Origin: an uncultured archaeon
GTDB lineage: Archaea; Thermoproteota; Nitrososphaeria; Nitrososphaerales; Gagatemarchaeaceae
Length of the DNA: 64,000 bases
Direction of reading: 5' to 3'
NCBI GenBank assembly: GCA_963817525.1
Contig: CAWFOU010000007.1
Location: forward strand, 416,001-480,000
Shown here one piece after another: positions 14,970 through 55,105 of this stretch (the stretch's first letter is position 1; every line of letters starts with the position of its first letter). The notes under the pieces are model-generated. The model made no database searches and was not told where the DNA came from. It saw nothing but the letters and a program-made list of their open reading frames with translations. The position numbers and the translations under genes are program-made.

Positions 14970-15421
14970 GCCTTCTGGCCCGCCCCCTTCGCCTCGGCCG
15001 CGCCGTCGCGTATCTCTATCGTCTCCTCGGTGACCGAGCTGTGGTCCTGGCTCGGGAGCCATGACCTGGTGTCCCCCGCATCCCCCTTCGGGACGGAGAC
15101 CACGACGTAGGAGTACCAGGGGAAGGAGTGCTCGAGGTCGAACTTGGATAGCGTGGCGGGATAGTCCGGATGGGAGTGGTAGATCCCGGCGATTGCCAGG
15201 CCCTTCTTAGCGACCTCCCTGTCGGCCTTGAAGAGCTCCATGGGGTCGATGTGATACCTGTCGTGCTTCGGCCCCGAGAAGGAGTTCCTCATCTTGACGG
15301 ATTCCACGACGTCCTTGCTCCCCGACCTCGCGATGAGCAGGCCGCAGCACTCGTCGGGGTAGGTGGACTCGGCGTGAGAATGGATGTCCTCGAGCGTCCG
15401 CCTCTCCATCTTGATCACCAT
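14966..15421 (-). CDS. JAMM/Mov34 (M67, Mec-like) metalloprotease
   Basis: YPDECCGLL and GIYHSHPD...S..D JAMM motif; 4-bp overlap with the Ubl-E1 gene. Confidence 0.92.
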   Translation of the reverse strand: MVIKMERRTLEDIHSHAESTYPDECCGLLIARSGSKDVVESVKMRNSFSGPKHDRYHIDPMELFKADREVAKKGLAIAGIYHSHPDYPATLSKFDLEHSFPWYSYVVVSVPKGDAGDTRSWLPSQDHSSVTEETIEIRDGAAEAKGAGQKA

Positions 15422-34296: not shown

Positions 34297-37200
34297 TCAG
34301 CCTGAAAGATACTTCCTAAGCGTCTCCTCGTTGTTCTCAGCGTGGAAGAAGACAGGGATGTTCTGGGTCGCGGTGGCCTTGAAGCTGGTGATGAGCCAGT
34401 CGCCGTTCGAGAAGGCCAACGTCCTGTCCACGAACGCATCCCCGATGGCGAAGGTGTCCGCGACTAGCTGCCTGTCGTATGGCCTGGGCATGGTCGAGAT
34501 GAAGTAGCTGTGGAGCTGCTGGAGGGCGTTGGTGTTGAGGTGGGCTATCCTCTGGGTGCTCACCCAGCAGAAGAGGTTGTACTTCCTCCCGTGCCTCAGC
34601 AGGCGCTCGACCGCCTTGCTGGACTCGTAGGCGTTGTCGCCCTTCCTCGCGTCCTGCGGGATGAACTCCTGGGCCTCGTCCACGATGAAGAGGACCTTCG
34701 GGGTGAGGCTGAAGCTCTTCTTCCTTTTGCGGAAGACCCTGCTGATGACGTCCGCGGTCTGTGCCCTGGCGTCCTCCGCCTCGGGCAGGTTGATGACGAA
34801 GACCCTTGGCGAGCCCTTCTCGGTGGAGAGGATCTCGTCGGGGAGGGTCTCCCAGGGGGACTTTTCGAGCTCGTCCTCTGGGACGGTGGCCTCGATCACC
34901 TTGGCGAGGGCGTCGAAGGACTTTTTCAGGGAGCTAGTGGCGGGGAGGTCGCCTATCAGCGACTGGATCTGGGTGATCAGCTTCGCGGTCTTGGCGTTGA
35001 ACCTGGTGTCGGCCGAGAACCCCTCGTCGTGCATGAACTGCTTGATCTGGGTGATCACCTGGGGGACGTAGATCTTCTGCTGGACGGCGCCGTACTTGTC
35101 GTTGAGCGTGTTCGTCAGGACCTCAATGAGCCCCCCGTAGGTGGTGAACCTCTCCACCTCCTCCGTCCCCTCCAGGGGGAGCTCGGCGAAGACTATCTTG
35201 CCGTCGTCGAAGAGCCTGGATATCTTCCTCTCGAACTCGGGCTGGAGGTCCGCGAGGGCCTCGGGGCAGACGTGCCGCTTGAAGTACTCGGCCGACTTGT
35301 TCTTCGAGCCGGCGAACGAGTCCGTGAAGAGGACCTTGCTCGGGTACTCGTTGAGGACGTCGAGGATGTGGATGCCATACTCCGAGGAGACGTCGAGTAT
35401 CACGACCTTCAGGTCGGGGATCACCTTGAGCGCCTTCCTGACTACAGTGGAGGTAAGATTGGACTTGCCGCTCCCCGTGTTGTGGCAGAAGACGCCGCCG
35501 AACCCTGCGAGGAAATTCTCTGCGCTGGGGACGGACACATCGTAGACGAACTGCGAGCTGGGGTTCACTTCATCTATCTTTTGCACTTCGTAGAAGCCCA
35601 GGAGCGATTGTTGGAGCGTCTTCACTTGTCGCATGTCATTCGAGGCCTGAAGCAGCTGCGGTGAAGCGTGAATGGTGTCCTGATTCCTAATCAAATACGT
35701 CCCCATCCCGGTCCTGTAAATGCCGTCGTGTCGTGCTTGATCCATGGGCTTCGCTGACGAGCCCTCGTAGGACATTAGTTTGCTCAGCCGAGTCTCCAAC
35801 TCTGAGAGCAGCGGCCCCCGCAATCGAGATCTTTGCTTCTTGACGTGAGATGGATGACTAAGAAGAGAGTAGAGCGAGCGAGGAAGTTCCGACGCAGGGT
35901 AGATGGGTTCTGCCCTTCTCCTGGTGGGGCGAATCACTCCCTTCATTTCTCTGCCTCGCGGGAATGAGAATTGGTATTTACCCCTGTTTCGAATTCGGCG
36001 ACCTTCGAGGAAAGTTGGTTTCGGGGCAATCCAATTCACAGCGCCCGCACAACGATCTAGTAAGAGCGTGTAGAGGAGGTCGTTCGTCAGCCTCCGCGAG
36101 GAACAGCTCGGATAATCGCCTTCTGCCCAGGCCCGGATGAACTCTTGCCTGACTGGCGAGGGTGAGTTAAGAATTAGCCTCGGGACAATTTTTCGTCTCG
36201 CCCCGGTTCCTGTGGATTGCATTAGGAAATGCGCGATGATTTTGTTGTTGAATGCGATTCGCACACCGTTCTCGCCGTGTCGATATTTTCTAATAGTTAT
36301 TCCAAATTTCTTCTTCAGAATCCGTTGTAGTTCATAGATTATCTTTTTGTCCTCTTTGCTGAGCCTGAAGACGGCAGAATATTGCACGCCCTTCTCGATG
36401 ATTGCATTTCCTTCAGCGGCAAAATACCCTAGCAGTCGGGCGATGTCCTTGTCGATTTCCAGAATTGGGCTTATTGTTGTCTTCGCTCCTTTGTAACCGA
36501 GTTTGACTGTCTCCTGCTCGGTTGCGGTCAATCGGTCCCAATATGTGAGAGGAAGCTTCGAGGACTGCCGCCATATGCACCACCTCCAACTCGGGACGCC
36601 GCCGTGCTCTAGCCTGTCAAATGCGGACTTGGGAACATCTGTAATAAAGACGCTCTCTGCAGCTTTTCCTTTGAATAAATCGCGAAGGTTCACGTTCAGA
36701 TTCGAATTGACGTAGTCGGGTATCTCCCTGGTCCCTACGACGAAGTCGCCCCTGACGATCTGAGACGCTGGTAGCGAGACAATCTTTCCTTTGCGGAGGA
36801 CGAAGAGAGAGTGACCCGGAGTGACTGAAACGTTGCGACCCGTCCGAAGCGTGAATTTCAGCAGCTTGTCGTTGTATCGATGCCTGAACACATACTGAAT
36901 TGGAGTCCATCTAACATCGAATGTCTTGGGATCGAATGATACGACTTCGACGGAGCTGGTGTATTTCCTGCCTTCTTCGCCGCGACCCCTGAAGAATGGG
37001 TCCACCAACTTGCCTATCTCGGTGATGTTGACTTGGCCATCTTGCCTGTAGATGATCGGCTCGTTGTAGTCAAGGCTGAAGGCGAAGACACCGCAATGGT
37101 AGTGGATGAGCTTCTCGATGTCCACGGTGAAGGGGATCTTCTCGTCGATGACCCCGAGGAGGTTCCCGAACCGGTAGTCCGCGGGGTCCTCGCCCTTCGG

Positions 37201-37713
37201 CACCCTGTAGCAGATGAGCTTCTCGACCGAGTCGCTGCTCAGGAGCCTGACGGAGCTCCCCGCGAGCGGGGCGTAGGGCTTCCTCTCGAAGGATATCGCG
37301 CCGCCCGCCGTCCTCATGACGTAACCGATGGGGGCGGCGACTATCTCTATCCAGGTGCTCTTGGAGCCCTTCTTCCACTCGCCCTCGATGAGCTCCATGA
37401 ACTCCTTCCGGATGGCGGCGGGCTGTGACCTGTCGAGGTTGGGCTGGGAGTAGTGCATGGGGAAGACGTCAGCGATCTCGTAGATCGAGAAGACGTCATC
37501 GGCCCCGAGGGTCTGGACGTTGGGTATCGCGAGGAGCTGCCCCGTGGCCAGCTTCTTGACCACGTTGGGGATGTAGTCGCACTCGATCACCGCCGTGCTG
37601 AAGGTGACGGTGGCGACTCCGTCCGCGGTCTGCCTCGTGGTGGAGACTATCTCCCTGAGCTTGCCGCTGAACTCCCCTCCGAGGTCGTCGAAGACCGGGG
37701 GCTGTCCGCTCAT
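34297..37713 (-). CDS. herA: HerA family ATPase containing an intein
   Basis: Spliced Walker A GVFAF/TGSGKS, ILDVSSEY, Walker B IVDEAQEF, RHGRKY, STQR; downstream of NurA. Confidence 0.88.
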   Translation of the reverse strand: MSGQPPVFDDLGGEFSGKLREIVSTTRQTADGVATVTFSTAVIECDYIPNVVKKLATGQLLAIPNVQTLGADDVFSIYEIADVFPMHYSQPNLDRSQPAAIRKEFMELIEGEWKKGSKSTWIEIVAAPIGYVMRTAGGAISFERKPYAPLAGSSVRLLSSDSVEKLICYRVPKGEDPADYRFGNLLGVIDEKIPFTVDIEKLIHYHCGVFAFSLDYNEPIIYRQDGQVNITEIGKLVDPFFRGRGEEGRKYTSSVEVVSFDPKTFDVRWTPIQYVFRHRYNDKLLKFTLRTGRNVSVTPGHSLFVLRKGKIVSLPASQIVRGDFVVGTREIPDYVNSNLNVNLRDLFKGKAAESVFITDVPKSAFDRLEHGGVPSWRWCIWRQSSKLPLTYWDRLTATEQETVKLGYKGAKTTISPILEIDKDIARLLGYFAAEGNAIIEKGVQYSAVFRLSKEDKKIIYELQRILKKKFGITIRKYRHGENGVRIAFNNKIIAHFLMQSTGTGARRKIVPRLILNSPSPVRQEFIRAWAEGDYPSCSSRRLTNDLLYTLLLDRCAGAVNWIAPKPTFLEGRRIRNRGKYQFSFPRGREMKGVIRPTRRRAEPIYPASELPRSLYSLLSHPSHVKKQRSRLRGPLLSELETRLSKLMSYEGSSAKPMDQARHDGIYRTGMGTYLIRNQDTIHASPQLLQASNDMRQVKTLQQSLLGFYEVQKIDEVNPSSQFVYDVSVPSAENFLAGFGGVFCHNTGSGKSNLTSTVVRKALKVIPDLKVVILDVSSEYGIHILDVLNEYPSKVLFTDSFAGSKNKSAEYFKRHVCPEALADLQPEFERKISRLFDDGKIVFAELPLEGTEEVERFTTYGGLIEVLTNTLNDKYGAVQQKIYVPQVITQIKQFMHDEGFSADTRFNAKTAKLITQIQSLIGDLPATSSLKKSFDALAKVIEATVPEDELEKSPWETLPDEILSTEKGSPRVFVINLPEAEDARAQTADVISRVFRKRKKSFSLTPKVLFIVDEAQEFIPQDARKGDNAYESSKAVERLLRHGRKYNLFCWVSTQRIAHLNTNALQQLHSYFISTMPRPYDRQLVADTFAIGDAFVDRTLAFSNGDWLITSFKATATQNIPVFFHAENNEETLRKYLSG
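35479..37077 (-). mobile_element. Intein (533 aa) with LAGLIDADG homing endonuclease, inserted in HerA Walker A
   Basis: Starts SLDYNEP; block B VTPGHSLF; LLGYFAAEG and FIRAWAEGD; block F VYDVSV; ends FCHN|T; visibly AT-richer than the exteins. Confidence 0.92.
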
Positions 37714-37714
37714 C

Positions 37715-39577
37715 TCAGCCGCCTCCCTTCCTCTTGGACTCCATCTGGCTGCGGTAGTCCCTGAACCTTTGCGAGAAGAGGACCTGCTGGTCGAGCTCTG
37801 ACTTTGCCATCTCTACCTGGACGGCGGCAAGGTAGGCGCTCTTGCTCTGCTTGAGGACGAACTTCGCCTTCTTGTCGGCGAGGAAGAGAGGGTAGTTGTG
37901 GCCGAGGGCCTCGGGGACCACCTCCCCGGACATCTTGAAGAGGAGGGACATCGCCAGGTTGGTCATCGCTGACTCCTCGCGGAGGTTGAGTATGGGGATT
38001 ATCCTCTCGTCTATCTCGTTGTCCCTGTTGTGGACGACGAGCGCGCCCCAGTGGTCGAAGCCCGCGTAGGCTGGCCTGTCGAAGGTGAAGACGTGCGACC
38101 TCACCGCGGGGTCGTTCCTGCTGCTCCACAGCTGCATGTAGGTCTTCACGAACGCCCTCTCTGGGTAGATGACGTTGCGGTGGGCGCCGCGCGCCCTCGC
38201 CTCGCCACTCGGGAGGGTCCCGTCCGGGACGGGCACCATCGTCCTGAACGCGGCGTCGATGTCGACCGTGTGCCAGGGGGTGGGGATGCTCGCGGCGTTC
38301 ACGACGCTGTCGGTCTGCAAGAGCATCTTATCGCTGTTGAAGTTGGGGAAGGGGTGCGCGAAGTCCTCCGCCTTGGAGTCGCGCAGGAGTGGGACGACGG
38401 CCTTGACCAGCTCGGCGGCCGCAGAGTCCTTGGTGAGGCCGATGGGCAGGACCCTCTCCGACCAGGCCCTGCGCGTCAGCTCGAGGACGAAGACAAGGAC
38501 GAGGTAGTCGAGGTCGTCGGCGGTTATCCACCTGTCCACGTGGCGGAGGCCGGCCTTGATCCTCAGGGGGTGCTCGGCCTTCGAGTTGAAGATGTGGTCG
38601 GCGACCGCGAGCGCGGCGCCCACGACCCGCTCCCGGTAGTCCTTGACCCCCGGCTTGAGCTTGAACTTCCTGTCTTCGCCGTCCGCGCCTTGCTCGAAGA
38701 TGTGGTAAGCGAAGTCGAGCTCCCGCAGGTCGTCACTGAGGACCGGGAGGTGGGAGCGGTCAGAGCCGACCTTCTCGAGGATCTGGAGGAGGGTGAGCTC
38801 CGAGCCGTCGAAGAGCGCGGTGACGGCCGCAAGCTTCAGGAGCTGGCTCCTGGGCGAGGGGATCTTGAGGTCTGGGTTGGCCACGAGGAGCCTCGCGAGC
38901 TCCAGGTCGAAGTTCGTAACCGCGCCGAAGGGCGTCTCCATCCCCTCGAGCACGGAGAGGCGGTCCTGGACGAGGTCCCGGGTGCTCCAGACGAGGTGGG
39001 CCACGTCCCCGGCGAGCGGCCTGTCAAGGAGGACGACCTTGAAGCCGCCCCCCGACGAGACGGCCTTGAGCGCGATGTAGTACTCGGCTAGGTGCATCAC
39101 CGCGTTGGGGAGGCGCTCGGACTCCACGTCGACCTCGACCCCCGACTCGGTCCTCTGCCCGAAGACCGTGGCGGCGTCCTCCTCCGAGAGTGGGATCGAA
39201 GCGGAGACCGCGGCCGAGGACTGGTTCATGGGGGAGGGGTCGCCGACCTCTATCTCGTCTGCCTCGAACCTCAAGGTCCCGGAGTAGCCAAAAGCGCCCA
39301 CGTAGAAGACGAGAAGGTCGAGGTGCTGGTCGACCGAGAAGGTCCCGTCGACCGCGACGTATCGCACTTGGTCAGCGCCGAAGAACCTCCTGCCCGTCGA
39401 GCTGGCGGCCTTGTGGTCCACGCCGAAGCGCATGAGCTTCTGGATGTCCGGCCCGGCGGTCGACTTTAGCTCGTCTATCTTGCCCTTGAACGACTTTAGG
39501 AGGAAGCGCGTGGAGCTCCTCACCTCCTGCATGGTCCTCGCCTCGAGCTCGGGGAGGTCTGCTGGTCCTGAGGACAT
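37715..39577 (-). CDS. nurA: NurA-like nuclease (long form, 620 aa)
   Basis: VAVDGT, VVLLDRPL, TKDS, GHNYPLFLADKKAK; start MSSGP at 39577. Confidence 0.8.
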   Translation of the reverse strand: MSSGPADLPELEARTMQEVRSSTRFLLKSFKGKIDELKSTAGPDIQKLMRFGVDHKAASSTGRRFFGADQVRYVAVDGTFSVDQHLDLLVFYVGAFGYSGTLRFEADEIEVGDPSPMNQSSAAVSASIPLSEEDAATVFGQRTESGVEVDVESERLPNAVMHLAEYYIALKAVSSGGGFKVVLLDRPLAGDVAHLVWSTRDLVQDRLSVLEGMETPFGAVTNFDLELARLLVANPDLKIPSPRSQLLKLAAVTALFDGSELTLLQILEKVGSDRSHLPVLSDDLRELDFAYHIFEQGADGEDRKFKLKPGVKDYRERVVGAALAVADHIFNSKAEHPLRIKAGLRHVDRWITADDLDYLVLVFVLELTRRAWSERVLPIGLTKDSAAAELVKAVVPLLRDSKAEDFAHPFPNFNSDKMLLQTDSVVNAASIPTPWHTVDIDAAFRTMVPVPDGTLPSGEARARGAHRNVIYPERAFVKTYMQLWSSRNDPAVRSHVFTFDRPAYAGFDHWGALVVHNRDNEIDERIIPILNLREESAMTNLAMSLLFKMSGEVVPEALGHNYPLFLADKKAKFVLKQSKSAYLAAVQVEMAKSELDQQVLFSQRFRDYRSQMESKRKGGG

Positions 39578-39594
39578 GAGCGGGCTACCCCGGT

Positions 39595-40125
39595 TTAGGC
39601 TTTGGCTCTCTTGCGAGTGACCTTCTTCTTCGTTGCAGCCTTCTTGGCAGCGGCCTTCCTGGGAGCGGCCTTCTTGGATTGGAAGATGAGCTTGAGAAGA
39701 GGCTCGGTTATGCCCATCGCGTCCTTCGTCGAGATTATGCCCACGGGGGTCCCGTCCTTCTCGATGACAGGGAGGTGCCTCACGTTCTCCCTCATCATCC
39801 TCTCCACCGCGGTGAGGACGCTCTCGTTGGGGATGGCCATGATGGACGTCTTCGACATTATGCCGGAGACCGGGACCTGGCGCCCGACCAGCGACTTGGT
39901 CACGGCGAAGATGATGTCGCTGGCAGTGATAATCCCGGCCATCTTCCCCTCCTTGTCGACCACGATGACGCTCCCGATCCTCTTCTCCCACATGACCGAG
40001 GCCGCCTCGTCGATGGTCGTCTCTTCGTTGACGACGATGGGGGGCGCCTCCATGAAGTCCTTGACCTTCGCGCTGAGGTGGTCGGGAGTCTTCGACAAGG
40101 GACTCGGCTGCGGATTCTGCCACAT
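39595..40125 (-). CDS. CBS-pair protein with Lys/Ala-rich C-terminal tail
   Basis: VKDFM...IGSVIVVD..GIIT..D; RHLPV..GIIS..D; tail KKAAPRKAAAKKAATKKK. Confidence 0.88.
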   Translation of the reverse strand: MWQNPQPSPLSKTPDHLSAKVKDFMEAPPIVVNEETTIDEAASVMWEKRIGSVIVVDKEGKMAGIITASDIIFAVTKSLVGRQVPVSGIMSKTSIMAIPNESVLTAVERMMRENVRHLPVIEKDGTPVGIISTKDAMGITEPLLKLIFQSKKAAPRKAAAKKAATKKKVTRKRAKA

Positions 40126-46922: not shown

Positions 46923-47915
46923 ATGATGTCGATTCATCCGGAGAAGGTGGAGGCGAAGAAGCACGGCAATGAGAACGAGCTTATCGTGTACGGTCCGTTC
47001 CACAAGACCTTCTTCGACTTCCTGACCCAGTTCCGCCACAGGTACTACGGTCTCGACATAGACCTCACCTACTATGCGGCCCACCCGGTGGAGGTCGTCC
47101 AGAAGGTGAGGGACGAGGTGAAGTACGGCATCCCGACGGCCGACGTGGTGATGCTCCCGCACTACACAACCTTGATGCTCAAGGAGTCGGGGCACCTCCG
47201 TGACTACCGCTCGCCCGAGCTGAAGGCCTTTGACCCCATGTTTAGGGACAAGGCAGGGATGTGGTCCGCCATCGCGGTGGAGCCCACGAACTTCATCTAC
47301 AACCGCCAGTTCCTCGACCAGAAGCTCGTCCCGAACAAGCTGTGGGACCTGACAAACCCGGGACTCAAGGGGCTGGTCTCGATGCAGTCTACCCAGGACT
47401 GGTCTGACGGCATGTACTCGTTCTTCTACTTCGCGACCCTGCTCGGCTTGATCGGGGAGAAGAAGTGGGACGAGTTCGTAAAGGCGTTCATCAAGAACAC
47501 AAACCCCGCGGTGTTCGCGTGCTACCACAACATGCAAAAGTACGTCTCGAGAGGAGACTATGCGATCGGGCTGCCTTTGCCCCTCATCAAGGTAGGCTGG
47601 GAGGTCGAGACGCTCAACCTGTCGGACGTCCCGAAGACGGCGAGCATGAGGAGCATCGGGATAGTTAAGGAAGCGGCGCACCAGAAGAACGCCGAGACGT
47701 TCGTCAACCACCTGCTGTCCGCCGAGTGGCAGAACCAGATGGGCAAGAACTATGAAGGATTAGTCCCCACAAGGCCGGGAGCGACCATGAAGTACAACGC
47801 CCCGTTCGTCAACCCGACGACCGCGTTCAAGTACTTCCCCGACGAGCACGGCGTGAAGGACGCGTTCTCGCCCAAGTCGCTCCTCGAGAAGTTCAAGTCC
47901 GTAGGCCTACCATAA
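46923..47915 (+). CDS. AfuA/FbpA-like solute-binding protein lacking a signal peptide
   Basis: ADVV, Y.SPE, FIYN, WDLTNP, A.H..NAETFVNHLLS.E.Q; no N-terminal hydrophobic helix. Confidence 0.75.
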   Translation: MMSIHPEKVEAKKHGNENELIVYGPFHKTFFDFLTQFRHRYYGLDIDLTYYAAHPVEVVQKVRDEVKYGIPTADVVMLPHYTTLMLKESGHLRDYRSPELKAFDPMFRDKAGMWSAIAVEPTNFIYNRQFLDQKLVPNKLWDLTNPGLKGLVSMQSTQDWSDGMYSFFYFATLLGLIGEKKWDEFVKAFIKNTNPAVFACYHNMQKYVSRGDYAIGLPLPLIKVGWEVETLNLSDVPKTASMRSIGIVKEAAHQKNAETFVNHLLSAEWQNQMGKNYEGLVPTRPGATMKYNAPFVNPTTAFKYFPDEHGVKDAFSPKSLLEKFKSVGLP

Positions 47916-47937
47916 TCTCGCCGAAAGCGGCGAATTA
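47913..47937. terminator. Hairpin between convergent SBP genes
   Basis: TCGCCG-AAAG-CGGCGA stem, extendable with TAAT/ATTA. Confidence 0.4.
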
Positions 47938-47958
47938 GCAGCCAGGTCAGCGTGAGCT

Positions 47959-48900
47959 CTAGTTCTTCGCGAAGAGCTTCGCGAGCGAGGAGATGGAGTC
48001 CGGGGCGGTCGGCATCATCTCGGCGTTGGGGAAGGGGACGAGCTTCTCCCCGTGGACGAGCTTGTCGAGCGAGTACGGGACTTCTATCCCGGTCCTGGAG
48101 GGTATCCTCAGGTAGGTGCTCCCCACCTTCTTCTGGCCTTCCTTCGAGAGGAGGAACTCCATCAGGAGCTCCGCGGCGGCGGGATGGCTCCCGGCGCGGG
48201 TCTTTGCGATCGCGTTGAAGGTCAGGAGCATCGGCACGTCCTTGAGCTTGAGGCGCTCGATGGACCGCTTCGCCTCCTTCGCCTTCACATAGTCGTGCAG
48301 GAGGACGGTGAGGCCAATCTTGCTCTCCCCGCTGGTCACAGAGTCCACGACGGGGTCGTAGAGGGGGGACATCTTGGGCTGGTTCTTGGCGAGACCCTCG
48401 GCGAACTTCTTCCACTTCTTCTCGCCGAAGATCGGCCTGAGCGAGGCTAGCCAGTAGGCCCCGAGGGTCCCCAGCGACAGGTCGTGCGAGATTATCGCCC
48501 CCTTCCACTCCGGGTCGGTCAGGTCCATGGCGGTCTTGGGGAGCTCCTTCTTGGCCACCACCTTGGGGTTGTAGACCTGAATCATTCCTATCGATACGAG
48601 GGGGAACCAGTAGCCCTCCGGCTCGAGGACGTCCTTGGGGTAGGCCTTCGTCTCCTTGAGCTTGGTCCTCGCGAGGAGGTCCAGGCCGCGAAACTGCATG
48701 AGTGGGGGGACTGCCACTATGACGGCGTCCGCTGTCTCCCTCCCCGCCTTGGCCTCCTCCATTATCTCCTTGGCCATGGGGGGCGGGGTCCCGGGGACGT
48801 ACTTCCTCCTGTACTCGACCTCGATGCCCGGATACTTCTTCTCGAACGCTTCCTTCCAGCCCGAGAACTCGTCCACCTCGACCGTGCCGTAGACCAGCAC
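47959..48900 (-). CDS. AfuA/FbpA-like solute-binding protein lacking a signal peptide
   Basis: FEKKYPGIEV, YNPKVV, DLTDPEWKG, HPAAAELLMEFLLSKEGQ; GTG start preceded by GAGGAGG. Confidence 0.8.
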   Translation of the reverse strand: MLVYGTVEVDEFSGWKEAFEKKYPGIEVEYRRKYVPGTPPPMAKEIMEEAKAGRETADAVIVAVPPLMQFRGLDLLARTKLKETKAYPKDVLEPEGYWFPLVSIGMIQVYNPKVVAKKELPKTAMDLTDPEWKGAIISHDLSLGTLGAYWLASLRPIFGEKKWKKFAEGLAKNQPKMSPLYDPVVDSVTSGESKIGLTVLLHDYVKAKEAKRSIERLKLKDVPMLLTFNAIAKTRAGSHPAAAELLMEFLLSKEGQKKVGSTYLRIPSRTGIEVPYSLDKLVHGEKLVPFPNAEMMPTAPDSISSLAKLFAKN

Positions 48901-48975
48901 CCTGCCCTCCTCGCTGGCCTTCTTGACCGCGGAGCTGGCTTGGCTCGTCTTGCGCGCCTCGGTTTCGTTTCGGCC

Positions 48976-50318
48976 TCAGGCTAGATATGTCTTGCCGGGA
49001 GGGAAGGGCCGGTTCTGGTGAGTCCTCGTTTGGTTGACTCTACTAGTCCTCTGTTGAATTCCGTTTGGTGAGCGCGGCTTGTCTCCACGATTGCAAGAGC
49101 GATGGGTCACTTCACCGTTTGAAATCTCGGTCTTTCCCCCGTCGGTATGACGGTCCCTGTGGTTTGGCTCATAGTCCTCAAAGTTCTCGACTCTCTTACC
49201 GCAAATCGCACACACCTTGGTCGTTGACAAGTCCCAGATTATCCGCTTTTCTTCATCGTTGAACTTTCTCTTGGGGTCTCTCGCAATCAAGAACGGTAGA
49301 ACCAATCTTCGGACTACTCCTGTTCGGTTGATTCTTGCCTCTTTGTCGGTCGTGTGGAGTTGAATTGATTCAAAGAACTTGTTCGTCAAGTCATCCAAGG
49401 GTAGAACTTCCCCTTTCTTCGCGAGAGTTGCTTTGTCTACCCTGTGCGATAGTCCCAACAGCGCGTCGCGTATTTGCTGGTATCGCTCTGTCGGAAACTG
49501 GTATTCCTTTGTCAGTTCCGCAATCGCGAGAAATAGGGAATAGTATTCGGCCTTGTTGTGCCACCGCGTAGCCCGCAAGTCGCCGATTATGTCTTCGATT
49601 AGCTGTCTGCTATGGTTGAATCTCTTGCGTATCTCGTCTTGGTCTGAGAAGACATCATCGTGAAGTCGATAGTAGGCATCGATTGAATCTTGGTCTTTCT
49701 TATCGATACCATGCATCATGGCGATCAATATCTCGCTGATGAACTCCGCGTCGAGCATTCGACGAACATCGTTTGGAGTCATCACCTTGTTCTCAGTCCA
49801 ATATTCGTCATCGGCCAGTTGGTAGACGAGAGCATGGAAGAGACCACTGTAAGTAGCATGGCGTAGCTCCTGAGAGTTCAGGGGAACAACGTTCTTGTTA
49901 AGGCGACGAAAGACCTCTTTGACATCATCGTCGTTTGGTGTCTTTAGTTCTCTGACAACTAGTTTGTAATCCCAGAACTCCTTCTTCACTCCGTCTGGAA
50001 GTTCGTTGAAGTATTTCCCTCCAAACTCTCGGTTGTCTTCTTCGAGAATTACGAAGTCTTTGTTCACGAATCCAAGAATGGCTCTTATTCGCTGTTGTCC
50101 ATCAACGACGACGTAACGGGTATTCCCTTGTCGGTCTTCACTTGGAGGTATATTTCGGGGATGGGGAAATGATTGATTATCGTATCTATCAGGTAGGACT
50201 TGTTAGAGGTATTCCAGACTGGCTTGCGCTGAAATGGAGGCGCGATTTCGAGCCTTCCCTCAGTTTGCCATCTGACAAACTCGGTTATCCGGTGCGCGGT
50301 TGGAGGCTCGTTGTCCAA
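48976..50318 (-). pseudogene. DUF262 (GmrSD/ParB-like) + HNH endonuclease, frameshifted near 50125
   Basis: PPFQRKPVW...LIDTII..FPIPEIYL in one frame continues as NTRYVVVDGQQR...VFRRLN in the -1 frame; C-terminal CAICG...NH...GG.T..SN...HRSCN. Confidence 0.82.
49011..49071 (+). repeat. Left TIR (49011-49035) and sub-terminal repeat (49051-49071)
   Basis: GGTTCTGGTGAGTCCTCGTTTGGTT; CTGTTGAATTCCGTTTGGTGA. Confidence 0.85.
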
Positions 50319-50324
50319 GCAAGG

Positions 50325-50456
50325 TCAACTCTTGAGTGCTTTCTTAATGAGTCTTACTACGGTCTCGTTGTTGTTCTTGAGGTCATACTCTATCTTGTAT
50401 CTTAGGACATCCTTCCACGTTGCGTCGTCGATATCCAGAATCAGTTTCTTCGGCAT
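50325..50456 (-). CDS. 43-aa ribbon-helix-helix-like protein (absent from the ORF track)
   Basis: MPKKLILDIDDATWKDVLRYKIEYDLKNNNETVVRLIKKALKS; stop 6 nt before the DUF262 start. Confidence 0.72.
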   Translation of the reverse strand: MPKKLILDIDDATWKDVLRYKIEYDLKNNNETVVRLIKKALKS

Positions 50457-50539
50457 TAGCGACCATTAACAACCATTAATCGACAGGTATTTATAGATAA
50501 CTCGCCTAGGGTATTAATGACCGTTAATGATTGTTAGTG
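50454..50539. promoter_or_regulatory. Divergent promoter with a symmetric 3+3 operator array
   Basis: CATTA(G/A) at 50454, 50464, 50474; inverted TTA(A/G)TG at 50514, 50524, 50534; central TTTATA at 50490. Confidence 0.7.
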
Positions 50540-51678
50540 GTTCGACGCGGGAAGAACGGGGACGCGCAATCTTCGAGAGGGGAACTGAGGTCTCAAGGAT
50601 GGATGAGAACAGCTATTGGGTCAGGTCTCAATCAAGAGATGTAAGATATGATGTCTTTTCTACTGAGGGCGGTTGGAATTGCTCTTGCCCCGACTTCACC
50701 TATCGCAGAATAGAGTGCAAGCACGTAGTGGCTGTTCGCCTTTCTCTTGGAATCAGAGAAGAGGTCAAAGCACAACAGGCCCAAGTCAGGCAAATTGAGC
50801 AGATAGAGGCGAAGGCTTGCCTCGCTTGCGGCTCATCCAACCTGATGAAGTGGGGGGTAAGACACAACAAGGCGGGCGACATTCAGAAGTTCAAGTGCCG
50901 CGAGTGTGGGAGATTCTTCACAGTCAATATCGGCTTCGAGCGCATGAAGCATAATCCCAGGGCGATCACTGCCGCGATGCAACTCTACTTCTCTGGGGAA
51001 TCGCTGAGAAACACCAAGAGGTCTCTGGAGCTTCTAGGCGTGAAGGTTGACCACACGACAGTTTACGCCTGGATTAAGAAATACGTCAACCTAATGCAGA
51101 GATATACCGACAATATTGCGCCGAATGTCTCCGACACTTGGAGAGCCGATGAACTCTTCTTGAAGGTCAAAGGCGATTTGAAGTATCTTTATGCTCTGAT
51201 GGATGATGAGACGCGCTACTGGATTGCTCAGGAGGTTGCAGAGACAAAATACACGCATGATGTCCGCAAACTCTTCCAAAGCGCGAAGGAGATTGCAGGT
51301 AAGATTCCTCAAACTTTCATCACCGATGGCGCGAGTAGCTTCCACGATGCCTACCGCAAGGAGTTCCTTTCGCCCTACGGTGAGACCCCGAGCGCGGTTC
51401 ACATTCGAGACATCAGGTTCGACGGCTCGGTTCACAACAACAAAATGGAGCGCCTGAACGGCGAAGTCAGAGACCGCGAAAAGACCATGCGGGGGCTGAA
51501 AAGAATGGATACGCCTATCCTCAAAGGGACTCAGATTTACCACAATTTCATCAAGCCACACGAGGGCCTTGGAGGGAAGACTCCCGCAGAGGCCGCAGGA
51601 ATCAAAGTCGAGGGCGAGAACCTTTGGTTAACGCTGATTCAGAATGCCGCCAAGAAGGATTCTCGGAAGGAAGATTAA
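50527..51678 (+). CDS. IS6-related DDE transposase with N-terminal SWIM and Zn-ribbon domains
   Basis: WNCSCPDF..ECKH (SWIM), CLACG..FKCRECG, HTH (GVKVDHTTVYAWI), WRADE / ITDG / NNKMERLNG. Confidence 0.9.
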   Translation: MIVSGSTREERGRAIFERGTEVSRMDENSYWVRSQSRDVRYDVFSTEGGWNCSCPDFTYRRIECKHVVAVRLSLGIREEVKAQQAQVRQIEQIEAKACLACGSSNLMKWGVRHNKAGDIQKFKCRECGRFFTVNIGFERMKHNPRAITAAMQLYFSGESLRNTKRSLELLGVKVDHTTVYAWIKKYVNLMQRYTDNIAPNVSDTWRADELFLKVKGDLKYLYALMDDETRYWIAQEVAETKYTHDVRKLFQSAKEIAGKIPQTFITDGASSFHDAYRKEFLSPYGETPSAVHIRDIRFDGSVHNNKMERLNGEVRDREKTMRGLKRMDTPILKGTQIYHNFIKPHEGLGGKTPAEAAGIKVEGENLWLTLIQNAAKKDSRKED

Positions 51679-51715
51679 CAAGCCTTAAAGGCAACGGAAC
51701 ACTCTTCGGAATCTC

Positions 51716-51979
51716 ATGCGACCCTTGAAGGCAGGCGTTCTAGTGATTCTCGCCCTGTTTTCAATCGGTGCTTTTGCGCTACTTGTCCCGGTAATCCCAA
51801 CAACCGTCGGCTCTAACTTCCATTGCACTCCCCAACAATCAAACGACCTCGACTTTTCTTGGGGTCATGGAGGATGCTATTCTCAAGGCATGGCCTCATT
51901 GACTTGGTATGCGTTTGGGTATGGCGCTTACTTCACTCTCGGGTCGTATGTCCCGCCAATCCAAAGAGGCCAGCAGTAG
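51716..51979 (+). CDS. Small membrane-anchored passenger protein
   Basis: TM-LVPVIP..C...C..SLTWYAFGYGAYF; inside the transposon, with its own TATA-like CTTAAA at ~51685. Confidence 0.6.
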   Translation: MRPLKAGVLVILALFSIGAFALLVPVIPTTVGSNFHCTPQQSNDLDFSWGHGGCYSQGMASLTWYAFGYGAYFTLGSYVPPIQRGQQ

Positions 51980-52040
51980 ACCCATTACCGCTTACAGTTA
52001 ACGCCCTAACCCAGATGCCGAGGAGTTAAGAGAACACCAG

Positions 52041-52102
52041 TCGCCAAACGAAAATCAACAGTCACAGTCAGGAAGAAAACCAAACATAGACCCAACAGAA
52101 CC
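52041..52102 (-). repeat. Right sub-terminal repeat (52041-52061) and TIR (52078-52102)
   Basis: Reverse complements GGTTCTGTTGGGTCTATGTTTGGTT and CTGTTGATTTTCGTTTGGCGA. Confidence 0.85.
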
Positions 52103-52192
52103 GAAGGGCCCGCGCCGGAAGCGGGCCATTTTCTTCGTTAGAATTAACCTAACCAAATGCTTATACCCGCTCCTCTCGCATTTGCAGAGCTA

Positions 52193-53383
52193 ATGCAGTA
52201 CACGAGGGGGATTTCGACAGGGGCCGCTGCTGCGGCAATCATAGTGGTGGCCATTCTGGTGGGGGGAGGAGTGTACGCCGCCACTTCAAGCTCAGCAAAG
52301 ACCGTCACTTCGACGGAGACGATGTCGTCCTCCGGCGCGATGGCAACCACCACCGTGACGAGCACGATGATGGAGAGCGCGTCGGGAAGCTCCTCCGCAA
52401 TTCCTGAAGACCTCGTCGCCGCGTGCGCCGCCGAAGGCAACACTGTTACTCTTTACGACTCGTTCACCACCACGGCGAACGCGATAGTGGTGAAGGACTG
52501 GAACGCGGAGTTCCCGCAGATCACTCTGACCGCCACGCCCGGCCTGACCGCGGCCTCCGTCAACCAGATGGCGCTCACTCAGTATCAGGCGGGCAAGGTG
52601 CAGGCGGACGTCATCAGCAACGCGCTCGCCTCCCTGATGGCGCTGAACGGCTCGGGGGTGCTCGCGCCGTTCAACAACGTCGACGAGCAGCTCGAAGGGT
52701 ACACCCCTGGGTACACGATCGCGCCCGGCCTGATACACCCCTCGACCGAAGACATCGACCTGTTGGCCTACAACACTAAGCTGATTACCAGCACCGCGAG
52801 CCTGCCGACCACCATACAGGGCCTGGAGCAGTCCCAGTGGAGCGGCAAGATTGCCATCGATAACCCCTCGACCGGCAGCGTGGCGCCGGAGTACTTTGCG
52901 AGCTTCGAGCCCTCGTTGGGCAACGCCTCGTGGACTGCGGTCATGAAGGGGATAGCGGCGAACGACCCGATACTCACGACCGCAGGCTCGGCGTCGCTCT
53001 CTGACTTGGAGAGCGGTCAGGCGGAGCTCGCGGTGGTCTTGCTGAGCGCGTACAACACCGCGGTGGCCGCCGGGGACCCTGTAGCCGTGGTCCCAGGCTT
53101 CTACGGTCAGGCTCATGTGACCGGGATTTCGCTTGCCACGGACGCGCCCCAGCCGGCCTGCGGGCAGCTGCTCGTCGAGTGGTGGGCCTCCTACTCCGGG
53201 CAGGAGATGATAGTCCAGAGCGGCAGGGGAGCGCAGCTGCCCAGTGTGAGGGCCATCAACGCGACTCAAATCATAGGGTCACTCCCGTCTTCGACGACGG
53301 TCGAGCCGCCCTCCAACGTCCCCACCAGCTACTACACCGACAATCCCGGATGGCAAAGCTACTACGCGACCATATTCGGATAA
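52193..53383 (+). CDS. ABC substrate-binding protein (FbpA/AfuA-like) with class III signal peptide
   Basis: TRG|IS plus hydrophobic helix, S/T linker, AEG.VTLY, ADVI, AYNT, WSGKIAIDNP. Confidence 0.85.
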   Translation: MQYTRGISTGAAAAAIIVVAILVGGGVYAATSSSAKTVTSTETMSSSGAMATTTVTSTMMESASGSSSAIPEDLVAACAAEGNTVTLYDSFTTTANAIVVKDWNAEFPQITLTATPGLTAASVNQMALTQYQAGKVQADVISNALASLMALNGSGVLAPFNNVDEQLEGYTPGYTIAPGLIHPSTEDIDLLAYNTKLITSTASLPTTIQGLEQSQWSGKIAIDNPSTGSVAPEYFASFEPSLGNASWTAVMKGIAANDPILTTAGSASLSDLESGQAELAVVLLSAYNTAVAAGDPVAVVPGFYGQAHVTGISLATDAPQPACGQLLVEWWASYSGQEMIVQSGRGAQLPSVRAINATQIIGSLPSSTTVEPPSNVPTSYYTDNPGWQSYYATIFG

Positions 53384-53422
53384 GGTCAAAGGTCATAACG
53401 CGGTCGGGGTAGCTTAGACCGC

Positions 53423-55105
53423 TTGGCCAGAGCGCCCGTCATAATTTTTGTCGCGTTCTCGGTCTTCTTCGTCATCCCCCTCGTCTTCGTGGTCTGGGGG
53501 GCCTTCGTGCCCTCCTTCCTGTCGAAGAACGTCACCCTGAAGTTCGTTGAGCTCGCCTTCACCTCGGCGAAGACCGTGGTGGTCCTCCGCAACTCGCTGG
53601 AGCTCGCGGTGGGGAGCAGCGTCCTCGCGTTGACGATAGGGACGGTCTACGCAGGGCTGGTCGCCAGGACCGACATCCCCGGGAAGCTGTTCTTCACGTC
53701 GGCCACGACCGGCCGGCTCATCATCCCGATCCTCGGGGAGGCCTTCTCGTGGATACTCCTCCTCAGCCCTAGCATAGGGCTCATCAACGTGGGCGCCGAG
53801 GACCTCCTCGGGACGACCCATCCCATATTCAACATCTTCTCGATGGGGGGCCTCATCCTCGCGGGAGGGATAGGGGCGACCCCCTTCGCGTTCCTGGTCC
53901 TCGAGCCGGCCTTCCTAGCCATGAACAGCGCCTACGAAGAGTCCTCACGGGTCGCCGGCGTCGGCAGGCTACGGACGGCGCTGGGCGTGACGCTGCCCCT
54001 GGCCACGCCGGCCTTGGTCTCGGCCTTCCTCATCTCGTTCATCGGCTCGCTTGAGACCCTGGAGTACCCCCTCATCATCGGGACCAACGCGAGGATAACC
54101 ACCCTCTCGACCGAGGTCTACAACCTGGCGAACGCGAGCCAGTACTCGCTCGCCGCGGCCTACGGCCTGTTCTTCATCCTCGTGATCGTGATACTCCTGG
54201 CTGCATACCTCTGGGCAACGCGGAGGGCCTACCGCTTCCAGACAGTGGGGGGCCGCGGCTCGCAGCACACCGTGCTCGAGCTGGGGAGGTGGAGGTGGCC
54301 GGCGTTCTTCCTGCTGCTCATTCCCGTCATAATGTTCCTGTTCATGTCGCTTACCGTCCTGACGCTGGTCTCGCTCGTGAAGGTCTATACGGTGGTCGGC
54401 CACGCTAACCCCTTCACCTCGTTCACGCTCGCTAACTACGAGGCGGTGGTCAAGATCCCGCTCTTCTGGGAGGCGTTCAAGAACAGCATCATCCTGTCGT
54501 TCGGCGCGGGGGCCCTCACCACAATCCTCGGGGCGGTGATGTCTTACGTTCTGGTGAAGGGCAAGACGAGGGGGAGGAACATCCTGTATTTCATCAGCAA
54601 CCTGCCGCTCGCCTTCCCGGGCGTCGTCTACTCCATCGCCCTGCTCTGGACCTTCCTCCTCATACCCCTGGTCAACGAGTACGTCTACGGGACCATCTGG
54701 GTCATGCTCGTGGGCCTGGTGGTCATCTTCTCGCCCTTCGCCATCCGGCTCATCTCGCCGGGCCTCGCCCAGCTTTCGGACGAGCTCGAGGAGGCGGCCG
54801 CAGTCGCGGGGTCGTCCTGGTGGAGGAGGTTCAGGAGCGTGACCCTGCCGCTGCTGAGGGCCAGCCTGGTCAACTCGTTCGCCTACGTGATGCTCAACGC
54901 GTTCCGAGAGCTCGGGGCGGTGGCCCTCCTTTACAACGCGTCCTCGATACTCATTATAATCATCGCCCTCAGCTCGTACGACAACAGCGGGTCACTGCCT
55001 CAGACCGCGGCCATCTTCGTGATGATGATGCTATTCTCCGCCGCGGTCCTGGTGGTCACGCGGGTGATGTCGAGGCAGACCTTTAGGATGCAGACGCCGG
55101 TCTAG
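53423..55105 (+). CDS. FbpB-type fused ABC permease
   Basis: Two EAA loops (YEESSRVAG; LEEAAAVAG), ~12 TM segments. Confidence 0.9.
   Translation: MARAPVIIFVAFSVFFVIPLVFVVWGAFVPSFLSKNVTLKFVELAFTSAKTVVVLRNSLELAVGSSVLALTIGTVYAGLVARTDIPGKLFFTSATTGRLIIPILGEAFSWILLLSPSIGLINVGAEDLLGTTHPIFNIFSMGGLILAGGIGATPFAFLVLEPAFLAMNSAYEESSRVAGVGRLRTALGVTLPLATPALVSAFLISFIGSLETLEYPLIIGTNARITTLSTEVYNLANASQYSLAAAYGLFFILVIVILLAAYLWATRRAYRFQTVGGRGSQHTVLELGRWRWPAFFLLLIPVIMFLFMSLTVLTLVSLVKVYTVVGHANPFTSFTLANYEAVVKIPLFWEAFKNSIILSFGAGALTTILGAVMSYVLVKGKTRGRNILYFISNLPLAFPGVVYSIALLWTFLLIPLVNEYVYGTIWVMLVGLVVIFSPFAIRLISPGLAQLSDELEEAAAVAGSSWWRRFRSVTLPLLRASLVNSFAYVMLNAFRELGAVALLYNASSILIIIIALSSYDNSGSLPQTAAIFVMMMLFSAAVLVVTRVMSRQTFRMQTPV

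Follow-up and report, generated by a model that had tools for sequence, protein, structure and literature searches.

A probable single insertion of a cargo-carrying IS6 relative in a Nitrososphaerota-like archaeon, and the archaeal branch to which it is assigned

A 64-kb stretch of DNA from an uncultured archaeon (contig CAWFOU010000007.1; hereafter the window, meaning this stretch at its full length) contains a 3092-bp element between positions 49011 and 52102. We regard this element, with high confidence, as a single inserted copy of an IS6-related insertion sequence that carries cargo; its host is a Nitrososphaerota-like soil archaeon. It is real and correctly delimited, and it is an IS6 relative by its transposase core, its tips and its target-site duplication. 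We assign it to a large archaeal branch of cargo-carrying, apparently self-regulated IS6-like transposons, the confirmed members of which are all 2–8 kb long, always contain non-transposase genes, move as whole units and exchange both cargo and regulator modules. An earlier reading of the same DNA (the original prediction) had described a complete IS6-related unit transposon with self-regulation and a defence-type passenger.

The boundaries are those of the original prediction. An exact 8-bp duplication of GAAGGGCC encloses terminal inverted repeats (TIRs) of 25 bp that begin GGTTCTG and agree at 20 positions (Table 1), and no other such pair occurs in the window. The tips read GGTTCTGG and GGTTCTGT, and hence include the GG tip and cTGTt motif of the IS6 family. 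In a repeat search, the terminal match comes to 26 nt at 81% once the ambiguous flanking C/G is counted. A further pair of inverted repeats lies ∼40 bp inside each tip and repeats the tip's CTG...CGTTTGG pattern. Because of this subterminal pair, the ends are two-part structures of ∼60 bp rather than 25 bp, a feature that the original prediction missed, as it did the frameshift and the reading-frame run-out described below.

How readily could this arrangement arise by chance? There are 18,694 pairs of exact 8-mers spaced 1–9 kb apart in the window, and one alone encloses an inverted repeat matching at ≥18/25 positions. In 50 block-shuffled windows, two pairs in total reached this level, with a best value of 19/25, and none of the 50 windows yielded 20/25. 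Base composition changes at the same positions. GC content is ∼0.63–0.65 in the flanks and 0.46–0.51 in the interior of the element (0.49 versus 0.63 overall), which places the interior 12–15 points below the host, and the steps fall at the repeats. Contigs of a public soil run bridge both element junctions without any difference. One caveat here is that the four soil runs containing the stretch come from a single study and may include the source sample, and hence they confirm the assembly and are not independent evidence.

Within its own 2.8-Mb genome, the element has one full match; the other matches are 66–83% identical over at most ∼700 nt, mainly in the transposase gene. When this genome was searched with either 25-nt end, allowing up to 8 mismatches, the only hits were the ends of the element itself, at 0 or 5 mismatches, and dispersed matches at 7–8 mismatches, which we took as chance. 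Among 40 related genomes, no copy exceeded 66–71% identity to the window element. The element is foreign in base composition and single-copy in its genome. It is not a unit transposon of the Tn3 type, as none of its open reading frames (ORFs) contains a resolvase or Tn3-type transposase domain. Neither a tRNA nor an Rfam family was found within the 64-kb window.

The original prediction had also named a 383-aa DDE transposase with SWIM and Zn-ribbon extensions, and each of these parts was recovered by profile searches. The match to Pfam DDE_Tnp_IS240 scores 50.7 bits (cut-off 27), and that to SWIM (PF04434) scores 26.7 bits (cut-off 19.6) at residues 49–70, where the signature CxCxnCxH (CxC..CxH) is present. 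The NCBIfam IS1/IS1595 zinc domain lies at residues 98–132. By far the best match is to the NCBIfam IS6 model NF033587, which is aligned end to end (1–202 of 202); the IS1 model also scores, at 49.4 bits. We aligned the window transposase with three full-length paralogues from its own genome. Invariant in 4/4 sequences are the SWIM residues C52, C54, C64 and H66, the zinc-ribbon residues C98, C101, C124 and C127, and the residues D208, D267, E308 and R315, with the arginine seven residues after the glutamate, where IS6 enzymes have K or R. Of 392 plasmid records from a tblastn search, the 25 best matches listed are all annotated as IS6-family transposases, at 23–29% identity. None of these listed matches covers the SWIM part, and matches to ISCpe7-type genes begin at residue 98, which is the zinc ribbon. 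No sequence in the PDB matched the transposase.

These features place the element close to IS6 in some respects and apart from it in others. In the portion of the family review covered here (Varani et al. 2021, PMC7986276), IS6 elements are characterized by 8-bp duplications, GG tips with cTGTt and lengths of 700–890 bp. The window element has the homologous DDE transposase, the GG tip with cTGTt and an exact 8-bp duplication. Like IS26, IS257, IS6100 and IS240, it is matched best by IS6 profiles in its transposase and combines GG tips and a CTGT motif with an 8-bp duplication. However, these canonical elements are 0.7–0.9 kb long, have a single gene of 213–254 aa and move cargo in pairs only (PMC7986276, in the same portion), whereas the window element departs from the simple ∼0.8-kb single-gene organization with its 3092 bp and 3–4 further ORFs. 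The archaeal group as a whole differs from canonical IS6 in its length (2–8 kb), its transposase of ∼370–395 aa with SWIM and zinc ribbon, its ∼60-bp two-part ends, its divergent small regulator, its internal passengers and its low identity (23–29%).

Longer IS6 members are nonetheless described in the portion of the review covered (PMC7986276): seven of 1230–1460 bp form clade h, from Firmicutes, with an N-terminal zinc finger, and three of 1710–1760 bp form clade i, from Halanaerobia and Thermoanaerobacter. Clades h and i (e.g. ISCpe7) resemble the window element in having an N-terminal CxxC zinc ribbon before the helix-turn-helix (HTH) and DDE parts. They differ in being bacterial and 1.2–1.8 kb long, and in that portion of the review passengers are not reported for them and SWIM is not mentioned; the word SWIM does not occur in the review (PMC7986276). 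Also within that portion, archaeal IS6 clades are all small, and the ISfinder set is without an archaeal zinc-finger member. A passenger gene is described there for a single IS6 member, ISDsp3 of Dehalococcoides sp. BAV1. This element, too, has a non-transposase gene inside its ends ('tIS'), although it is one bacterial example with one hypothetical passenger, and we liken it by description only.

Relatives of the transposase are numerous. Among 8000 candidates scored, at least 5094 were relatives at E ≤ 1e-3, and the best 120 are 354–396 aa in length. In species-representative genomes, 543 of 613 candidate stretches were confirmed. The family counts given here are based on the best 78 loci of this species-representative search, the hosts of which include Bathyarchaeia, Nitrososphaerota (with the chromosome of Ca. 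Nitrosotalea devanaterra), Methanoperedens, a Methanotrichaceae metagenome-assembled genome (MAG) and the Asgard archaeon Ca. Atabeyarchaeum. Three loci (L037, L067 and L070) lie on contigs of 4–17 kb that were binned as bacteria (Pirellulales, Saccharibacteria and Limnocylindrales, respectively); here, mis-binning seems more likely than transfer to bacteria.

Each of the 78 loci was scanned for a GG-tipped inverted repeat (≥14/20) around the gene in combination with an exact 8-bp duplication. Both were present in 56/78 loci, compared to 1/78 in a control that paired the left flank of each locus with the right flank of another. The original prediction had anticipated conserved ends, 8-bp duplications and variable cargo in homologues, and this expectation was borne out. 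End agreement of 14–20/20 is usual among members with intact duplications. The delimited relatives range from 1983 to 8093 bp (median 3304), and none of them is a bare IS. Their tips read GGTTCTG at 62 of 112 ends and GGTAACG at 21. The transposase gene lies at least ∼730 bp from the left end, save in three differently laid-out elements (L049, L057 and L089). Two-part ends are general: agreement between left and right ends is 0.76–0.94 over positions 1–25, drops to 0.39–0.42 at positions 26–35, rises to 0.52–0.67 at positions 36–60 and is ∼0.27 beyond. A subterminal 16-mer is common to both ends in 45/59 elements, versus 2/59 when ends of different elements are compared.

The same organization recurs in the window's own genome, where 5/5 SWIM-type copies (the window's included) have exact 8-bp duplications. 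The four further members are 2118–2383 bp long, encode transposases 35–60% identical to the window's and have small membrane-like ORFs at one or both ends. In one of them (C1:352102-354434), the transposase gene is in two pieces, one of 82 aa with SWIM and one of 295 aa. Elsewhere in this genome (C7, ∼988560–991830), there is a 3.2-kb unit with long perfect inverted repeats and ORFs of 308, 182 and 162 aa besides a transposase. The latter is 292 aa long and IS6-like, with the zinc ribbon and without SWIM. No 8-bp duplication was found for this unit, and it was left out of the family counts.

Passengers move together with the transposase gene. L076 and L077, which reside in one genome, are identical at 2748/2748 positions and have different flanks and duplications, and thus the whole unit, passengers included, transposes. 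The same is true of L103 and L106, at 2644/2644 positions. The family in this way answers to the description of a transporter IS (tIS), in which passengers move as one unit inside the ends. For the single copy in the window, we infer whole-unit movement from its boundaries. Cargo is also exchanged. The transposases of L084 and L092 are 92.7% identical (DNA, 87.6%), and the first 61 bases of the two elements match at 93%, yet the 0.8–1 kb to the left of the transposase gene and most of the right part show no likeness. The regulators of the two are of different types. On a quick tree of the transposases (SH-aLRT support only), regulator types are mixed among sister transposases. In this tree, the window transposase groups with L033, L035 and L036 (support 93), L066 groups with L040 (support 99), and the GGTAACG tip type is confined to one clade.

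What is carried? We compared 131 ORFs of ≥95 aa from 54 distinct related elements to Pfam (E ≤ 1e-3). A family was found for 35/131 and none for 96/131. Restriction or modification genes are present in 8/54 elements (Table 1), in agreement with PADLOC. Other cargo families include NYN, Fic, SocA/Panacea, proteasome-like, aspartyl-protease-like, glyoxalase, GNAT, ParB_N and HTH regulators. The original prediction also had these elements shuttling surface genes. What speaks for this are counts from a crude hydrophobicity rule, by which a membrane-like segment is present in one or more non-transposase ORFs of 40/59 elements; a part of these ORFs is probably spurious.

Some members have landed beside one another. 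In 16/56 delimited elements (Table 1), another family-type tip (≥9/12 bases like the element's own tip) lies directly outside the 8-bp duplication, and therefore these elements inserted exactly 8 bp from the end of a resident relative. This recalls the targeted insertion of IS26 beside another IS26. The window element has no such neighbor. Of the elements with the GGTAACG tip, 5/11 (L039, L069, L076, L103 and L106) sit in a palindromic 8-mer, TTACGTAA, and two others of this tip type (L064 and L062) lie in one- or two-base variants of it. This recurrence may represent a target preference or a side effect of landing beside resident tips.

We turn to the passengers of the window copy. The original prediction described a divergent operon of a ribbon-helix-helix (RHH) protein and a DUF262-HNH nuclease. 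Both genes are there, but the nuclease is split by a frameshift, and to call the element complete, with a defence-type passenger, was too strong. A guide is provided by L066, in which a homologous nuclease, small protein and transposase occur in the same order as in the window. Its nuclease is intact (408 aa; GmrSD_N 85.9 bits, HNH 41.2 bits). The 363-aa piece of the window is 46% identical to it over 330 aa, the 77-aa piece is 66% identical to its residues 1–64, and between them the two pieces cover residues 1–402. The frame switches at ∼50116–50127, between a conserved KTDK and the DGQQR motif. A short-read contig carries identical letters over 50064–50224, with no gap or difference, which makes the frameshift unlike a long-read homopolymer error. 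The 363-aa piece also lacks the stop codon of the L066 gene; its frame stays open for another 37 codons, crosses the left end and terminates 35 bp beyond the element boundary. The PADLOC model NsnA matches the 363-aa piece at 72.8 bits and the 77-aa piece at 41 bits; against the whole nuclease of L066 it reaches 142 bits.

In type, the passenger resembles GmrSD-type type IV restriction enzymes and the PADLOC models NsnA and PD-T4-2_A, with which it shares the DUF262/GmrSD_N domain and its DGQQR motif. It differs from them in its C-terminal nuclease, which in both the window and L066 is a classical HNH (PF01844); GmrSD carries a DUF1524 domain. The window copy no longer has DUF262 and HNH intact in one polypeptide. 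The original prediction also listed a small membrane protein. This ORF exists, at 87 aa, and has one hydrophobic segment at its N-terminus, but it has no family match and no counterpart in the other elements.

A gene for a small protein of 43 aa points away from the transposase gene. A search without a word index found 44 representatives of its family at E ≤ 1e-3, ∼40 of which are 42–88 aa long and aligned end to end. Its AlphaFold (AF2) model has a pLDDT of 93.7, with an extended N-terminus and predicted helices at residues 11–23 and 29–42. Foldseek ranks the RHH domain of NikR first for this model, followed by CopG (TM 0.81, rmsd 1.6 Å), MatP and RHH antitoxins. Modeled as a homodimer, the protein scores 0.72 (best control, 0.02), with an interface formed by the N-terminal strand and helix 2; runs have ≥72% of contacts in common and a pLDDT of ≥88. 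The mark of 0.72 is reached by 20/30 proteins solved as one-chain pairs and by 1/23 solved as single chains, and the pass may reflect likeness to solved RHH dimers. The protein resembles CopG/Arc-type RHH repressors in its predicted strand-helix-helix layout, its modeled symmetric dimer and the repeats that flank its promoter. It differs from them in lacking a sequence-profile match and in its Foldseek E values, which exceed 0.001, and its DNA binding is a prediction.

The two start codons are 70 bp apart, and a TATA-like box, TTTATAGATAA, lies between them. Inverted arms on either side of it (50454–50480 and 50513–50539) comprise four copies of an ATTAA-N-ACC-ATTAA type repeat and overlap both start codons. 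L066 has the same promoter layout with the same kind of repeat, and its small protein is 60% identical to that of the window. We extended this comparison to the other elements, of which 35/59 could be sorted by eye into eight regulator groups, each with a distinct repeat that flanks the TATA boxes on either side (Table 1). The counts use these 35 elements; an automatic pick (57/59) held evident mis-picks, including those for the window's element, p2–p5, L035, L065, L073 and others. The curated Pfam cut-off is reached by 4/40 small proteins (MazE_antitoxin twice, RHH_1 and RHH_5), and many more fall just below it. As the repeats differ by protein type, there is comparative support for the idea that the small protein binds the promoter repeats. 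Repression of the transposase gene as well as of its own operon is suggested by the geometry. The self-regulation envisaged in the original prediction stands to this extent, by comparison: the operator-like repeats go with regulator type.

Table 1. Features of the window element, related elements in its own genome and selected members of the archaeal group
Feature	Position	Strand	Remarks
Element	49011..52102		3092 bp; read as a single insertion; GGTTCTG ends and exact 8-bp duplication
Left target-site duplication copy, GAAGGGCC	49003..49010	none	read directly
Right target-site duplication copy, GAAGGGCC	52103..52110	none	read directly
Left TIR	49011..49035	+	tip GGTTCTG; 20/25 versus right end
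Right TIR	52078..52102	-	reverse complement also starts GGTTCTG
Left subterminal repeat	49051..49071	+	21 nt, 86% inverted match; second part of two-part end
Right subterminal repeat	52041..52061	-	21 nt, 86% inverted match to 49051–49071
Nuclease, C-terminal piece	48976..50067	-	363 aa; DUF262/GmrSD_N and HNH; GmrSD_N 23.3 bits (below cut-off), HNH 21.9 bits
Nuclease, N-terminal piece	50085..50318	-	77 aa, other frame; matches start of GmrSD_N
RHH-like small protein	50325..50456	-	43 aa; divergent from transposase; first gene of passenger operon
Divergent promoter region	50454..50539		two inverted operator-like arms around TATA-like box TTTATAGATAA
Transposase	50527..51678	+	383 aa; SWIM, zinc ribbon, HTH, DDE; Pfam/NCBIfam matches, invariant columns
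87-aa ORF	51716..51979	+	one N-terminal hydrophobic stretch, residues 1–19, Kyte-Doolittle 1.64
Own-genome member	C1:352102-354434		exact 8-bp duplication
Own-genome member	C7:735011-737128		exact 8-bp duplication
Own-genome member	C1:1001517-1003899		exact 8-bp duplication
Own-genome member	C2:11656-14025		exact 8-bp duplication
Cargo of L035			Tsp45I enzyme and methylase
Cargo of L047			BsaWI-like enzyme and methylase
Cargo of L033			methylase
Cargo of L054			N6 methylase and specificity subunit
Cargo of L067 and L087			HSDR_N-methylase fusions, 840 and 891 aa
Cargo of L088			methylase-Mrr fusion
Cargo of L066			GmrSD_N-HNH, behind homologous small protein
AbrB/MazE-like regulator set			repeats ATCTACCTAC / GTAGGTAGAT
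Second AbrB/MazE-like regulator set			AGGTAA-type repeats
One RHH regulator set			GTAGTA / TACTAC repeats
63-aa regulator family			two GCAGTAATATTGC-like palindromes
Tip-adjacent elements			L039, L040, L041, L046, L047, L049, L064, L067, L069, L076, L088, L091, L099, L102, L103, L106

A scheme for the element can be drawn from these parts. The SWIM/zinc-ribbon/HTH N-terminus of the DDE transposase would bind the tip and the subterminal repeat at both ends, and the enzyme would make an 8-bp staggered cut in the target, as do enzymes of the IS6 family. Movement could proceed by copy-in, with cointegrates that host recombination then resolves, or in some other way; only simple insertions with duplications were seen. 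The 43-aa RHH-like protein, as a dimer, would bind the repeats that flank the shared TATA box and thereby hold down the transposase gene and its own operon. The passenger would formerly have been a GmrSD-like DUF262-HNH nuclease, for restriction-type defence, which is broken here by the frameshift and the loss of its stop codon.

A thermosome subunit encoded in the window (793 bits) has named homologues (74–78% identity) that all come from Thaumarchaeota/Nitrososphaerota MAGs, and on these grounds we take the host to be an archaeon of this kind. The insertion point lies in the divergent promoter/intergenic region between two genes for solute-binding proteins (47959–48900, minus strand, and 52157–53383, plus strand). 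The element's two outward-facing transcription units have the same direction as the adjacent flanking genes, and the nuclease frame reads out through the left end; read-through from the element into the neighboring genes is possible. No RNA run contains the stretch. A short motif, GCTAGATATGTCTTG, lies at 48980–48994, upstream of the gene for the left solute-binding protein. The same-genus relatives L023–L030 retain it, and beyond it all differs. It is probably part of the promoter of that gene. The element lies 9–16 bp beyond this motif.

The original prediction envisaged an empty site, with a single GAAGGGCC between the two solute-binding-protein genes, in related genomes or reads. We compared window positions 47000–54200 to the 40 related genomes and to the own genome. 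The left flank is common to nine relatives, and we read eight same-genus loci. In 8/8 of these, likeness to the window ends between 48911 and 49002, just before the duplication, and is followed by neither the element nor the window's right flank. The element is therefore absent from the matching position in the eight same-genus loci that have the left flank. Contigs from the four soil runs of the single study contained no joint across the element; such contigs drop rare variants and several bins lacked coverage, and this result carries no weight either way. Given the low GC content and the exact duplication, the window copy looks like a fairly recent arrival, the passenger of which has been broken since.

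Several observations weigh against parts of this account. The IS6 model is matched at 114.8 bits, whereas its curated equivalog cut-off is 125, and named IS6 transposases are only 23–29% identical to that of the window. A clean empty site was not found in any of the eight same-genus left-flank loci (the right-hand side differs there anyway), and so the insertion event is deduced from the duplication alone. The 43-aa protein has no Pfam or NCBIfam match, and its model has no Foldseek match at E ≤ 0.001. The transposase tree is a quick one, with SH-aLRT values as its only support. Finally, with a single copy, ends that agree at 20/25 and a broken passenger, nothing shows that the window copy can still move. 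These last features could mean that it is a dead relic, which no longer transposes and is decaying in place. We tend to doubt this, while granting it a substantial chance: the copy is single, its ends are imperfect, its passenger is frameshifted with the stop codon lost, and nothing closer than 66–71% identity exists in the 40 related genomes, but the transposase frame is open over 383 aa with all paralogue-invariant catalytic and zinc-binding residues present, end agreement of 14–20/20 is usual among members with intact duplications, and the GC deficit of 12–15 points and the exact duplication point to a recent arrival. The role of the small protein can also be read in another way, namely as controller or antitoxin of the passenger cassette, comparable to the C proteins of restriction-modification systems or to RHH/AbrB antitoxins, acting on its own operon only and not on the transposase gene. 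The left module would then be a cassette for addiction or defence whose place beside the transposase gene is incidental. In the leftward operon, the small gene invariably comes first, before a nuclease, a methylase pair or a 130–190-aa protein of no recognized kind; its Pfam matches are to antitoxin-type families (MazE_antitoxin, RHH_1, VapB and HicB); and the whole left module is exchanged along with its operator. However, a small DNA-binding gene is recognizable at this place in 35/59 elements whatever the cargo, and the repeats flank the TATA box and extend over the start of the transposase gene too. We therefore find a role confined to the cassette rather doubtful, and the two roles are compatible.

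More basic is the question of whether the group belongs with IS6 at all, or forms a separate family that has only a distant DDE core in common with IS6 and IS1. The missed equivalog cut-off, the IS1 score, the low identity to named IS6 transposases, the extra SWIM, the ∼60-bp two-part ends and the constant presence of non-transposase genes all favor separation, as does the lack of an archaeal zinc-finger member in the ISfinder set of the 2021 review (PMC7986276, in the portion covered). Nevertheless, the IS6 profile is matched over its full length and by far the best, Pfam DDE_Tnp_IS240 is above its cut-off, GG tips with CTGT and 8-bp duplications are hallmarks of IS6, and zinc-finger-extended clades are already accepted in the family (PMC7986276, same portion). 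A separate family thus seems unlikely to us, and descent from IS6 remains our preferred reading. That the repeats arose by chance, or that a small IS and host genes make up an accidental composite, we consider extremely improbable. The ends are imperfect and only one copy exists, but the shuffled windows and the GC step exactly at the repeats argue against chance, the architecture recurs in relatives (56/78, control 1/78), identical whole-unit copies occur elsewhere, and L066 has nuclease, small protein and transposase in the same order.

Three other genes of the window deserve mention. An ORF of 1138 aa (34297–37713, minus strand) contains an intein N-terminal splicing region (residues 214–305) and weakly matches the model for an anti-phage-associated HerA helicase. 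It adjoins an 802-aa ORF (37715–40123, minus strand) with no NCBIfam match. The larger ORF may encode an ATPase with an intein, as one half of a pair that acts in defence or repair. A 511-aa ORF (13527–15062, minus strand) combines in one frame a SAMP1-type ubiquitin-like N-terminus (residues 55–122), an E1 adenylyltransferase of the MoeB/UbaA type and a C-terminal rhodanese.

The original prediction suggested that the element may belong to an undescribed group, and this still holds: no description of a SWIM-bearing or cargo-carrying archaeal IS6 group was found in the literature searched, which did not cover ISfinder or supplementary tables. In the portion covered of their survey, Krupovic et al. 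2019 (PMC6563490) describe IS-like transposons of Thaumarchaeota with one or two genes and count DNA transposons that carry passengers as one of the classes undetected in archaea; their main text does not contain 'IS6' as a whole word. The aloposons (PMC8813620) were considered as the same group and rejected: in the part covered, these tRNA-integrating elements contain giant genes and are unrelated. In the Atabeyarchaeia paper (PMC11529989), 'IS-like transposons' are listed but the present type is not named in the part covered, which did not include its supplementary tables.

Taken jointly, the data incline us, with modest confidence, to a broader reading: that these elements form a major unnamed archaeal transposon family of IS6 descent, with a SWIM/zinc-ribbon transposase, two-part ends, a swappable repressor-operator cassette, 8-bp tip-adjacent landing (16/56) and an open cargo bay, and that this family is a main vehicle for restriction-modification and defence genes. 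The local biological effect of the window copy is probably small, because it is one decaying copy. For the family, the swappable repressor-operator cassettes and the tip-adjacent insertions are testable traits of element self-control and target choice. Because the cargo is rich in restriction-modification genes and 96/131 ORFs have no Pfam match, the family is also a list of candidate archaeal defence and accessory genes.

IS6 and IS26 are the textbook 'minimal' insertion sequences, which move cargo only in pairs. This picture changes with a very large archaeal branch whose confirmed members are all self-contained carriers of cargo. Archaea would also gain a class of passenger-carrying DNA transposon, listed as undetected there in the portion covered of PMC6563490. 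If the broader reading is true, such a family would move not only defence genes but also many small membrane proteins and orphan proteins among the archaea of soils and sediments, including Bathyarchaeia, Nitrososphaerota, Methanoperedens and Asgard lineages.

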